Below, in pieces: positions 13,827 to 61,690 of a DNA stretch of 64,000 bases. Source of the stretch: Escherichia coli (GTDB lineage: Bacteria; Pseudomonadota; Gammaproteobacteria; Enterobacterales; Enterobacteriaceae); NCBI RefSeq assembly GCF_003991155.1, contig NZ_CP031293.1; one strand, given 5' to 3'. Position 1 is the first letter of the stretch, and every line of letters begins with the position of its first letter. Below the pieces are notes generated by a model. The model saw only the letters and a list, made by a program, of their open reading frames with translations. It was not told the origin of the DNA and did not search any database. The translations under genes were made by a program, and so were the position numbers.

Positions 13827-15028
13827 TGAATCTTTCAGCCAATGCACAAGCGACCCTCCTGCTAACCAGCGATTTTTCTCGCGCGGCGGCGAGTGAGTAT
13901 AAACCTCTTAGTAATAGTGAATGGGGGAAGTTTGCATTATGGCTGAAGCACCAACGTATCAGTCCCGCCGATCTTCTGGTGCCGCAACCGCAAGAGAAAC
14001 TTACAGGCTGGAGCGATCCGCGTATTTCTCAGGAGCGTATTCTTGGCTTGCTGGCGCGTGGCCATAGTCTGGCGTTGGCGGTAGATAAGTGGCAACGCGC
14101 CGGTTTATGGATCTTAACCCGCGGAGATGCCGATTATCCCGTTCGCTTGAAAAACCGATTGCGAACGGATGCACCTCCCGTTTTATTTGGCTGCGGGAAT
14201 AAAGCATTACTGCAAGCGGAAGGTATGGCGATTGTTGGCTCGCGAGATGCTCCGACTGCCGATTTGCGCTATACCCAACAACTGGCAGCGAAACTGGCCC
14301 AACAGGGGATTTGCGTTATCTCTGGTGGTGCGCGAGGTATTGATGAATGTGCAATGGCGTCGGCACTGGAGGCCGGGGGAACTGCCGTTGGCGTATTAGC
14401 TGATAGCTTGTTAAAAACGAGTACGTTAGTGAAATGGCGTGAAGGGCTTATAGCAGGCAACCTGGTGTTGATTTCGCCGTTTTACCCAGAGGTACGTTTC
14501 ACCGTCGGCAATGCGATGGCGCGAAATAAATATATTTATTGCCTTGCTGAAAGCGCAATGGTTGTACGTGCGGGAATGACCGGTGGAACGATAACCGGAG
14601 CGATGGAGGCGTTAAAACATCAGTGGCTGCCTGTGCAGGTTAAACCAAATCAGGATGTGCAATCAGCCAATTCACGATTAGTAGAAAATGGGGCGTCATG
14701 GAGTGCTGAACAGGCTGAGAATGTGACGATCAGACTGCCAGACGTTCCTGGGCTGATGTATGACAGAGCACTCCGTAACGCTCAACCAGAATTGTTTTCG
14801 CTGCACGAAGATGACGCAAATTACGCAGTGATGCCCTCGCATACCCCTGTCGATTTTTATCAACTTTTTGTGGCGGAACTGGCGATCCTTGCAAAGGAAT
14901 CGATAAGTATTGAAAGGCTGGCGTCTTGTACTGGTTTAACCATCGAACAAATTAGTGTGTGGCTGAACCGCGCAGAAGAAGAGGGAAGGGTTATCCGATT
15001 GGGCGAAGGTCATTATCAGTTCAGGTAA
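13826..15028 (+). CDS. DprA/Smf-like Rossmann-fold DNA-processing protein (PsyrA/ShosA-like candidate antitoxin or partner)
   Basis: 400 aa from the ATG at 13826, which overlaps the upstream TGA (TGATG, translational coupling); DprA signature (MAIVGSRDAPTADLRY ... VISGGARGIDECAMASALEAGG) and a C-terminal winged-helix-like tail; the track's longer ORF from 13733 is an in-frame extension into the upstream gene. Confidence 0.8.
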   Translation: MNLSANAQATLLLTSDFSRAAASEYKPLSNSEWGKFALWLKHQRISPADLLVPQPQEKLTGWSDPRISQERILGLLARGHSLALAVDKWQRAGLWILTRGDADYPVRLKNRLRTDAPPVLFGCGNKALLQAEGMAIVGSRDAPTADLRYTQQLAAKLAQQGICVISGGARGIDECAMASALEAGGTAVGVLADSLLKTSTLVKWREGLIAGNLVLISPFYPEVRFTVGNAMARNKYIYCLAESAMVVRAGMTGGTITGAMEALKHQWLPVQVKPNQDVQSANSRLVENGASWSAEQAENVTIRLPDVPGLMYDRALRNAQPELFSLHEDDANYAVMPSHTPVDFYQLFVAELAILAKESISIERLASCTGLTIEQISVWLNRAEEEGRVIRLGEGHYQFR

Positions 15029-58871: not shown

Positions 58872-58876
58872 ATAAA

Positions 58877-58904
58877 ACGGGAGGTGAAGGTGCCTCCCGT
58901 TTTT
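58877..58904. terminator. envZ terminator, shared with the convergent antitoxin gene
   Basis: acgggagg tgaaggtg cctcccgt followed by TTTT; the minus-strand antitoxin stop codon (58903-58905) abuts the T-run. Confidence 0.7.
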
Positions 58905-59199
58905 AGATTGTTTTCAATTGATTGATAATGAAAGGATTCGCTTGCAAAAGCAGGAGCAATTTTCGGGGTGCTCCGGTAGGCTGACGGCGTTTGGTTTCCC
59001 AGCTTTTGACCAGGTCATAACTTACCCCTACGGCGACAGCAAAATCTTGCTGACGTAAACCCGTTGCTTCACGGATCGCTTTTACATCGATTTCGCTAAA
59101 AGTATGGACGTGCTCTGGTTCTGGCGTTTCTTCACCCTTTTCGATGCGTACCATTTCTTCTGCGCTGGCAAGAAGATCAGCAAATAATTCATCTTTCAT
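58903..59199 (-). CDS. HigA-like antitoxin (XRE-type helix-turn-helix DNA-binding protein)
   Basis: 98 aa; helix-turn-helix segment (IREATGLRQQDFAVAVGVSYDLVKSWETKRRQPTGAPRKLL) typical of HigA/NadS-type antitoxins; 58 bp downstream of the toxin gene on the same strand. Confidence 0.75.
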   Translation of the reverse strand: MKDELFADLLASAEEMVRIEKGEETPEPEHVHTFSEIDVKAIREATGLRQQDFAVAVGVSYDLVKSWETKRRQPTGAPRKLLLLLQANPFIINQLKTI

Positions 59200-59257
59200 C
59201 TGTTTTCAATGCCTCCGTTGACATTTCGGCCATGGTGGAATTTGTGGAGCTTCAACA

Positions 59258-59575
59258 TTAAAGCAGCTTCTCGGACAATAGTTTCAATGCCTTTCTTTGT
59301 TCTTCTGTTAAATCATCCTGTTCATTTTTAGGATAAATCAACGCCAGATAAATTCGGCCATTGCGTGTTACGTTGTAATAAATTATCCGAATGCCACCCC
59401 GTTTCCCCATTCCAGAACGGTTCCAGCGAATTTTTCTAAAACTGCCTGTGCCTGCGATAATGTCACCGGCAGTGGGATCTTGAATGAGTAGTTCCTGAAA
59501 AGCCCGGAACTCATCATCAGGTAGCAATAACTGGCGGCGTTTGCTAAATCCTTGTAGTTCAATAAAGGTGAACAT
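59258..59575 (-). CDS. HigB-like toxin (RelE/ParE superfamily mRNA interferase)
   Basis: 105 aa with the GTG-x-R-K-I-R ... G-K-R-G-G-x-R-I-I-Y-Y ... L-x-x-I-Y-x-K-N-E motif (GSFRKIRWNRSGMGKRGGIRIIYY, LALIYPKNEQDDLT) that I associate with Vibrio-type HigB toxins; toxin-first gene order is characteristic of HigBA. Absent from the K-12 envZ-pckA junction as I recall it. Confidence 0.75.
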   Translation of the reverse strand: MFTFIELQGFSKRRQLLLPDDEFRAFQELLIQDPTAGDIIAGTGSFRKIRWNRSGMGKRGGIRIIYYNVTRNGRIYLALIYPKNEQDDLTEEQRKALKLLSEKLL

Positions 59576-59639
59576 AATGCATCCTGCGGTCTATTGATAA
59601 TTATAAGTGTACCGTGTACATATTGGTAGCTAATTAGAT

Positions 59640-59670
59640 AAAAAAACCCCTTATCCGTTTGGATAAGGGG
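59640..59670 (-). terminator. pckA terminator
   Basis: Hairpin ccccttatcc gttt ggataagggg preceded on the plus strand by A7 (a U-tract on the minus-strand transcript). Confidence 0.75.
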
Positions 59671-59689
59671 TCAATGAGATATCAGCTGA

Positions 59690-61312
59690 TTACAGCTTAG
59701 GACCTGCCGCTACCAGCGCGGCACCCGCAGGGGTGTCGGTGTATTTATCAAAGTTGTCGATAAACAGTTTCGCCAGGGTTTCGGCTTTTTCCTGCCACTG
59801 TTCCGGGGAAGCGTAGGTGTTACGCGGATCGAGGATCTTCGTGTCTACGCCCGGCAGTTCGGTTGGGATCGCCAGGTTAAACATCGGCAGAGTGAAGGTT
59901 TCTGCGTTATCCAGCGAACCGTTGAGGATGGCGTCGATAATGGCGCGGGTATCTTTAATCGAGATACGTTTGCCAGTGCCGTTCCAGCCGGTGTTAACCA
60001 GATACGCCTGCGCGCCTGCCGCCTGCATACGTTTCACCAGCACTTCTGCGTACTGAGTTGGGTGCAGCGACAGGAATGCCGCGCCGAAGCAGGCGGAGAA
60101 GGTTGGCGTCGGTTCGGTGATGCCGCGCTCTGTACCAGCCAGTTTGGCGGTGAAGCCAGAGAGGAAGTGGTACTGGGTTTGATCGGCAGTCAGACGAGAA
60201 ACCGGCGGCAGCACGCCGAAAGCATCAGCAGTCAGGAAGATAACCTTAGTTGCGTGGCCCGCTTTGGACACCGGCTTAACGATGTTTTCAATGTGATAGA
60301 TAGGATAAGAAACGCGGGTGTTCTCGGTTTTTGAACCATCATCAAAGTCGATAGAACCATCTTCACGCACGGTGACGTTTTCCAGCAGCGCATCACGACG
60401 GATAGCGTTGTAGATTTCAGGTTCCGCTTCTTTCGACAGCTTGATAGTTTTTGCGTAGCAGCCGCCTTCAAAGTTAAACACGCCGTCATCGTCCCAGCCG
60501 TGTTCGTCATCGCCAATCAGGCGACGTTTCGGGTCGGTGGAAAGGGTGGTTTTACCGGTGCCGGAAAGGCCGAAGAACACCGCAACATCGCCTTTCTCAC
60601 CAACGTTGGCGGAGCAGTGCATAGAAGCGATACCTTTCAGCGGCAGCAGGTAGTTCATCATTGAGAACATCCCTTTCTTCATTTCGCCGCCGTACCAGGT
60701 GCCGCCAATCAGCTGCATGCGCTCGGTCAGGTTAAACGCCACGAAGTTTTCGGAGTTCAGACCCTGTTCTTTCCACTGCGGGTTAGTGCACTTCGCGCCG
60801 TTCATAACGATAAAGTCTGGTTTGAAACCTGCCAGCTCTTCATCGCTCGGGCGAATAAACATGTTTTTGACAAAATGCGCCTGCCAGGCCACTTCGGTGA
60901 TGAAACGGACGGAAAGACGAGTATCCGGGTTCGCACCACAGAAAGCGTCGACAACGAACAGACGTTTGCCGGAAAGCTGTTTGGTCACCAGGCCTTTAAG
61001 ATGCTGCCAGGTTTCCGGAGAGAGAGGTTTGTTGTCGTTCTTACCTTTGCCTTTGTCTGCCCACCAGAAAGTATCGCGAGTGGTATCGTCACGGACGATA
61101 TACTTATCTTTTGGTGAACGACCGGTGAAGATCCCGGTATCGACGGCAACGGCACCCAGATTAGTTAACACCCCGCGCTCATAACCTGTCAGGCTCGGAT
61201 CGAGCTCTTCCTGATACAGCAGGTCGTAGCTTGGGTTGTAAACGATATCATGTACGTCACTGATACCATAAGCCTCGAGTTCTTGCGGGGTCAAACCATT
61301 GTTAACGCGCAT
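59690..61312 (-). CDS. pckA: phosphoenolpyruvate carboxykinase (ATP)
   Basis: 540 aa starting [20 protein letters not shown] with the kinase P-loop ([11 protein letters not shown]); the track's ORF is 23 codons longer. Confidence 0.95.
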
Positions 61313-61690
61313 TTCACTGCTCCTTAGCCAATATGTATTGCCTGAATAGTAAAGTCTTTTTGGGGGTGTTAACCGCGACAAGGCTCATAGATTTACGTAT
61401 CTGGAGAAATTCATATTTGACAAAAAACTCCGTGATTCCTGTCACGAAACGGTTGCTATTATCGCAGAAATAGCATTTTAGGTGTGGAAAATGTTCTCAA
61501 AAGGTTAAATCTTGGTTTATATGGCGGGAATATTGTGAGTGGAATCGCATTCCTGAATGAAATTGATGCAAATTCAATCGGTAAAGTATCGATTCACCAC
61601 GCTAACTTTTTTTGATTATTTTCTGAAAAAAGCAAAATACTACGGCCTGGATGCGATAATTAACCCACTTTTTGATTCTGGATAACTAAC

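Follow-up and report, generated by a model that had tools for sequence, protein, structure and literature searches.

Type II toxin-antitoxin modules are well known to repress their own transcription through a palindrome embedded in the promoter. In the Escherichia coli DNA analysed here (the window, a stretch of 64,000 nucleotides), a toxin gene and an antitoxin gene lie between envZ and pckA, and a short repeat with GTAC cores precedes the toxin gene, which raises the question of whether this repeat is the operator of the module and, if so, with which symmetry and by which protein it would be read. A first-pass annotation had proposed a candidate autoregulatory operator of a HigBA-like module, made of a direct repeat of TGTAC around palindromic GTAC cores. 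The comparative sequence analysis reported below indicates that the 15-bp dyad at 59607-59621 is very probably an autoregulatory operator, at which a dimer of the HTH antitoxin controls the toxin-antitoxin operon. The features of the locus are listed in Table 1.

Table 1. Coordinates of the features discussed, in window positions; gene order is ompR, envZ, antitoxin, toxin, pckA.
Feature	Position	Strand	Basis or remark
ompR		+	
envZ	end 58871	+	
Bidirectional hairpin terminator	58874..58903	both	common to envZ (+) and the antitoxin gene (-)
Antitoxin gene	58903..59199	-	98 aa, NadS family; N-terminal toxin-binding segment and C-terminal XRE-type HTH
Inserted cassette	58904..59685	-	alignment with the K-12-like empty site; boundaries approximate
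Toxin gene	59258..59575	-	105 aa, predicted HigB2-like mRNase of the RelE/ParE superfamily; PF06296
Shine-Dalgarno AGGA	59582..59585	-	6 nt before the toxin ATG
-10 hexamer TATAAT	59600..59605	-	predicted; perfect consensus in the sequence, and homologues have TAnnnT at the same offset
Candidate operator	59607..59621		15-bp dyad; + strand gTGTACcgtGTACAt / gTGTACcgTGTACat: gTGTAC-cgt-GTACAt
Putative -35 TACCAA	59623..59628	-	2/6 matches to TTGACA; 17 bp from the -10
Intrinsic terminator of pckA	59638..59672	-	stem 59672..59645, 12 pairs, then T-run
pckA	61381..59690	-	

The predicted toxin matched HigB2 of Vibrio cholerae (PDB 5ja9; E=1.3e-23, 50% identity over 98 residues) and keeps the residues equivalent to K49, R51, R64, Y82 and K84 of the HigB2 active site (PMC10098735). 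The antitoxin was recognized by the NCBIfam NadS model (E=4e-21) and showed similarity to V. cholerae HigA2 (VcHigA2), both by phmmer (E=5e-5) and by a family profile (E=1.8e-9 over residues 4-97), at an identity of only about 26%. Its AlphaFold2 model (pLDDT 85) shows a five-helix HTH domain preceded by a helix and a linker at the N terminus; the closest solved structure is VcHigA2 (5j9i; rmsd 1.9 A over 65 columns of the C-terminal domain), followed by the C-terminal domain of MqsA (3fmy; rmsd 2.8 A), 5jaa having also been compared. The module thus has the toxin-first order of HigB2/HigA2, a HigB2-homologous toxin with its catalytic residues, and an antitoxin with an N-terminal segment and a C-terminal XRE-HTH, for which dimerisation is predicted. 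The HigBA-like label given earlier was appropriate, and by these sequence matches the more precise name is HigBA2-like. K-12 also carries a core-genome NadS-like paralogue, yiaG (14479-14769 of locus L094), whose family (NCBIfam PRK10072) matched the window antitoxin with E=4e-18; no toxin gene adjoins yiaG.

Comparison with K-12-like genomes revealed that the module lies on an inserted cassette of about 780 bp (roughly 58904-59685), versus about 46 bp between envZ and pckA in those genomes. The antitoxin is the only DNA-binding protein that the cassette encodes. The pckA terminator was assigned to the inserted segment because the K-12-like empty site has no such terminator, and it shields the promoter of the module from transcription reading through pckA. 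The cassette is present in about 1,330 of the 5,426 complete E. coli genomes and holds the pckA-envZ position in E. coli/E. albertii, Citrobacter and Kluyvera alike, while copies with the repeat were also present on plasmids, namely E. coli p13k-GZ04 and K. pneumoniae pEGKP3.3. In the comparison of insertion sites, which included the empty site and six further loci, the site was occupied in Pluralibacter too; one locus (L021) had a truncated toxin and another (L031) an orphan antitoxin without the motif.

Three records require comment. A 4.8-Mb "plasmid" entry of PLSDB (NZ_OL790696.1) holds the chromosomal cassette at 100% identity and is evidently a mislabelled chromosome. A complete cassette with two GTAC-N3-GTAC sites was present on a contig binned as a Butyricicoccus MAG (Firmicutes), which reflects a contaminated bin or else a horizontal transfer from Gammaproteobacteria. 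In E. coli BS-04 (NZ_CP172819.1, 3442937-3444279), what seemed to be a remnant of the cassette was dropped as homopolymer-ridden assembly noise; the region bears an annotated "hypothetical protein", but it looks like a local failure of assembly or polishing rather than biology.

The repeat had been placed between the pckA terminator and the toxin start, about 30-45 bp upstream of the toxin ATG, and both statements held: it lies between the terminator stem and the ATG (59575-59573, - strand), at a measured distance of 32-46 bp from the latter. The TGTAC copies of the + strand are at 59608-59612 and 59615-59619, the GTAC cores at 59609-59612 and 59616-59619, and the core palindrome at 59608-59620, with one exact TGTACA at 59615-59620. 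Read on the - strand, the site is aTGTAC-acg-GTACAc. In the sense of the toxin gene the context is ...ctaccaat-aTGTACacgGTACAc-t-TATAAT-tatcaatagaccgcAGGAtgcattATG, a single base (59606) separating the 15-bp site from the predicted -10 hexamer. Judged within the window alone the repeat is statistically unremarkable and constitutes weak evidence: one GTAC-N3-GTAC is present in the 64 kb where 0.32 would be expected, 29 of 100 shuffles contained one or more, and the window contains 21 direct repeats of six-mers at offset 7. The longer pattern TGTAC-N3-GTACA has one site in the 64-kb window and none in 30 kb of K-12. The significance of the repeat comes from the comparison of related loci given below.

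That the repeat lies inside the promoter, as had been supposed, agrees with the predicted architecture, in which the site fills the 17-bp spacer between TACCAA and the perfect TATAAT, and homologous promoters of Enterobacterales read TTGAnn-3nt-GTAC-N3-GTAC-3nt-TAnnnT. Where the window has the weak TACCAA, the homologues have a well-conserved TTGAnn, and the Shine-Dalgarno sequence is conserved among them as cAGGGA or cAGGA. A simple scan for the sigma-70 consensus called no promoter on the - strand here, because the -35 is too weak; the assignment was retained because of the perfect -10 hexamer and the conservation of the architecture in homologues. The strength and the start site of the E. 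coli promoter are therefore predictions. Overlap with the core promoter, as expected of a type II operator, was therefore found for a promoter that is itself predicted.

To define the conserved unit, we aligned 18 diverse NadS antitoxins and with this alignment retrieved 80 loci from contigs representing each species by one genome; of these, the 55 with a full-length toxin homologue, including its start codon, upstream of the antitoxin were used. These loci range over Enterobacterales, Oceanospirillales, Aeromonas, Idiomarina, Thiomicrospira and others, with identities to the window proteins from 100% down to 38% for the toxin and 41% for the antitoxin. In all 55 loci the 110 nt before the toxin start contain GTAC-N3-GTAC at least once, which amounts to 85 sites in 6,050 nt of upstream DNA versus none in 169,209 nt of flanks of the same loci. 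In all 85 sites the cores are 3 bp apart, other spacings being essentially absent; the GTAC cores are invariant and the spacer bases variable. The flanks are mirror-symmetric, with R in 81 and T in 71 of the 85 sites on the left, and A in 71 and Y in 84 on the right. With fixed cores, a free spacer and symmetric flanks, the conserved unit is an inverted repeat, R-TGTAC-N3-GTACA-Y (13-15 bp), a consensus that the site in the window fits on either strand. Such dyad symmetry typifies sites bound by a protein dimer with twofold symmetry, and symmetry suited to an oligomeric antitoxin, together with conservation along with the cassette, is what a type II operator should display. The description of the repeat as a TGTAC direct repeat with palindromic GTAC cores therefore stood in its sequence, coordinates and cores and fell in its symmetry: the impression of direct repetition arose because the T completing the second TGTAC sits in the variable spacer, whose third position is A29/C6/G17/T33 over the 85 sites, the base after the first GTAC being A32/C15/G11/T27.

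The number and arrangement of sites differed among the loci. Two sites were present in 30 of the 55, about 30 bp apart in Enterobacterales and 20-24 bp apart elsewhere, and the two-site layout of Enterobacterales is site-TTGAnn-3nt-site-3nt-TAnnnT. The E. coli/E. albertii, Citrobacter and Kluyvera loci have the promoter-proximal site only, directly after the terminator hairpin. In Oceanospirillales (L040-L055) the two sites, 20-24 bp apart, bracket a -10-like box, and since the proximal one adjoins the Shine-Dalgarno sequence, it may exert its effect at the transcription start or beyond it.

The residues that would read the site were examined in the 56 cognate antitoxins, in which the helix and turn S60-x-[D/E]62-x-[V/I]-K65-S66-W-E-x-x-R71-R72-x-P is invariant or nearly so. 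VcHigA2 contacts bases through R68, E71, N72 and R77 (PMC11006873). The equivalents are D, K, S and R in the window antitoxin and in that of the E. coli plasmid p13k-GZ04, and D, R, S and R in that of the K. pneumoniae plasmid pEGKP3.3, all three having GTAC-N3-GTAC in the promoter; a NadS homologue on an Acinetobacter plasmid (L083) has R, Q, N and R and lacks the motif. The recognition residues thus differ where the motif is absent, in V. cholerae and Acinetobacter. This co-variation of operator type with recognition residues, drawn from sequence comparison, is the best evidence short of wet-lab work that the antitoxin is the probable binding protein, and together with the presence of the repeat across orders and on plasmids, and its absence from the flanks, it supports the earlier suggestion that the repeat is a cis-element of the cassette's own. 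L083, on the A. baumannii plasmid pOXA58_005078, comprises a NadS-annotated antitoxin and a RelE/ParE toxin next to msr(E); because it lacks the GTAC motif and has VcHigA2-like recognition residues, the NadS label spans at least two operator specificities. Cross-talk with the K-12 paralogue YiaG was considered and rejected, as its recognition residues (A/K/E/R/V) differ and the motif is missing upstream; GTAC-N3-GTAC was found neither in the yiaF-yiaG intergenic region nor in the surrounding 30 kb of K-12.

Binding, its stoichiometry, the effect of the toxin and the transcription start, as we infer them, would combine as follows. By analogy with VcHigA2, a dimer of the HTH antitoxin would bind the 15-bp dyad, either free or as a toxin-antitoxin-antitoxin-toxin tetramer. 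The operator would span roughly -28 to -14 relative to the predicted start, and since it occupies the whole spacer between -35 and -10, the bound repressor would exclude RNA polymerase and shut off synthesis of toxin and antitoxin; loss of the antitoxin would relieve the repression. Were the outer RTGT/ACAY bases the ones contacted in successive major grooves, the distance between their centres would be about 10-11 bp, a normal value for an HTH dimer.

A natural variant of the site was found in 107 of 5,426 complete E. coli genomes, in which one GTACACG unit is deleted (atatGTACacttataat). The deletion arose by slippage on the direct repeat of period 7, and its carriers include CFT073, Nissle 1917, ATCC 25922, ABU 83972 and E2348/69. 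Among five deletion strains examined, four (CFT073, Nissle 1917, ATCC 25922 and E2348/69) share the same nonsense mutation at codon 22 of the toxin gene, E2348/69 with a frameshift in addition, and the antitoxin is intact in all four (loci among L086 and L089-L093). In FCI1 the deletion is present and the toxin intact, which suggests that the deletion preceded the nonsense mutation. The halved operator might have disturbed regulation, with subsequent loss of the toxin, or selection on the operator might have relaxed once the toxin was dead; the association of deletion and nonsense mutation is anecdotal, because it comes essentially from one lineage.

The reading of 59607-59621 as an operator for a twofold antitoxin dimer has to be weighed against others. 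The repeat might be a functionless direct repeat arisen by chance in AT-rich intergenic DNA, and the shuffles and the 21 offset-7 repeats in the window are what such an origin would look like; but the pattern recurs in all 55 homologous promoters and nowhere in 169 kb of flanks, with the 3-bp spacing exclusively, and it is kept at the orthologous pckA-envZ position in Citrobacter and Kluyvera despite diverged promoter DNA. Nor are the loci near-identical copies, given an antitoxin identity that falls to 41% and spacers and flanks that differ, so that chance is a practically negligible explanation. Recognition of TGTAC-nn-TGTAC as a tandem direct repeat by two protomers arranged head-to-tail would account for the 6-bp direct repeat of period 7 on the - strand (GTACAC-g-GTACAC), and the natural 7-bp deletion behaves as a direct repeat does in slippage. 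We nevertheless regard this arrangement as very unlikely, since the bases that extend the direct repeat are unconserved over the 85 sites, the outer flanks are mirror-symmetric (R-T...A-Y), and the homologues HigA2 and MqsA bind as twofold dimers (PMC11006873, PMC4894380).

The site might also belong to another protein of the host or of another module, such as a YefM- or Phd-type antitoxin: these recognise paired (T)GTAC(A) cores (PMC1802561), and an exact TGTACA is part of the site. Their cores are, however, 12-13 bp apart and not 7 (PMC1802561), no YefM-type gene is present in the cassette, and the motif accompanies the cassette on plasmids and in different orders while co-varying with the recognition residues of the adjacent antitoxin, all of which makes a foreign binder most unlikely. 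The remaining explanation, that the palindrome acts as a hairpin in the leader RNA, with an effect on stability or translation, or is merely a sequence requirement of the promoter, draws on the proximal copy of Oceanospirillales, which immediately precedes the Shine-Dalgarno sequence and could be part of the transcript, and on the filling of the promoter spacer by the site in the window. It is extremely unlikely: the stem bases never co-vary but are always GTAC, which points to selection for sequence rather than structure; the E. coli site lies upstream of the -10 and would be outside the transcript; and the second copy that most loci have is located before the -35 or at a different offset and so is not bound to one promoter element.

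Repression by an antitoxin dimer at this dyad is standard autoregulatory-operator biology, and the mechanism is no surprise. The motif itself seems undescribed for the NadS antitoxin group: no description of this operator or of the E. coli module was found in the accessible literature, although an earlier one may exist elsewhere. The analysis provides a precise consensus for the operator of an antitoxin clade that is widespread on chromosomes and plasmids. A broader idea, which we put forward tentatively and consider possible rather than probable, is that NadS-type antitoxins form a large mobile clade with an undescribed operator code, R-TGTAC-N3-GTACA-Y, read by a re-registered or differently docked HTH dimer with MqsA-like geometry. 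If this were true, the compact site of 10 specified bases, rare in genomes, might give the antitoxin a small extra regulon; MqsA is said to have one. In that case the 7-bp deletion of CFT073 and Nissle, where an intact antitoxin accompanies a dead toxin, would represent a natural operator-null allele. In CFT073, Nissle 1917, ATCC 25922 and E2348/69, half of the operator is missing and the toxin carries the nonsense mutation, which is relevant to studies or engineering of the locus in these strains.

Several known systems share parts of this design. The HigBA2Ab module of A. baumannii (pAB120) likewise pairs a NadS-annotated antitoxin with a RelE/ParE toxin, and gfp fusions, the only reporter evidence for a NadS-annotated antitoxin, showed autorepression by its antitoxin that was stronger with the complex (PMC5906591). 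The antitoxin of the Acinetobacter homologue is only 37% identical, its residues are R/Q/N and, in the plasmid copy examined, the GTAC motif is missing from the promoter; transfer of the reporter evidence to the present module was therefore rejected, on the assumption that L083 and pAB120 carry the same copy. At the YefM-YoeB and Phd-Doc loci, as here, paired palindromes containing GTAC overlap the promoter of the module and are conserved from genome to genome; the pairs consist of TGTACA hexamers in YefM operators and have GTAC cores in those of Phd, with 12-13 bp from core to core (PMC1802561). They differ in this centre-to-centre distance, which is 7 bp here, in their antitoxin-first operons and in an unrelated antitoxin family, the antitoxin neighbouring the present site being an XRE-HTH protein.

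The geometry is identical to that of E. coli MqsA, whose operator is 5'-AACCT-N3-AGGTT-3' (PMC4894380): the 5-N3-5 palindrome, the toxin-first operon and a homologous HTH domain are shared. The NCBIfam MqsA family matched the antitoxin with E=1.7e-7 in the HTH part only (residues 32-95), and MqsA profile similarity was weak (E about 0.01-0.04). The half-site sequence differs from AACCT/AGGTT, MqsR is not a HigB2-type toxin, and MqsA has an N-terminal zinc-binding domain, whereas the present 98-aa antitoxin contains no cysteine and hence no CxxC zinc motifs.

The closest relative as a module is V. cholerae HigB2/HigA2, with its toxin-first operon, homologous toxin, an antitoxin of the same architecture and fold, and a palindrome that starts with TGTAC and lies between -35 and -10. 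VcHigA2 protects a single operator, TGTACGC-N5-GCGTACA, from after the -35 across the -10, represses in vivo in a dimerisation-dependent manner and has been crystallized on DNA (PMC11006873); PDB 8a0x contains the HigB2-HigA2 tetramer on operator DNA, further structures of the module being 5j9i, 5jaa and 8a0w. That operator has 7-bp arms and a 5-bp spacer, whereas all 85 sites here have the 3-bp spacing, and three of the four base-contacting residues are changed (R68/E71/N72 to D/K/S). A partner half-site at V. cholerae-type spacing in the window was also looked for and rejected, the candidate at +14 being TTATA with 3/5 matches as read by eye. Since the GTAC cores are 7 bp apart here and 13 bp apart in V. 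cholerae, the binding geometry of VcHigA2 cannot simply be copied. VcHigA2 and the NadS clade nevertheless share the fold and the TGTAC start of the half-site, with the cores 6 bp closer in the latter, and within this one fold the co-variation of recognition helix and operator could inform how HTH dimers shift the spacing of their half-sites.
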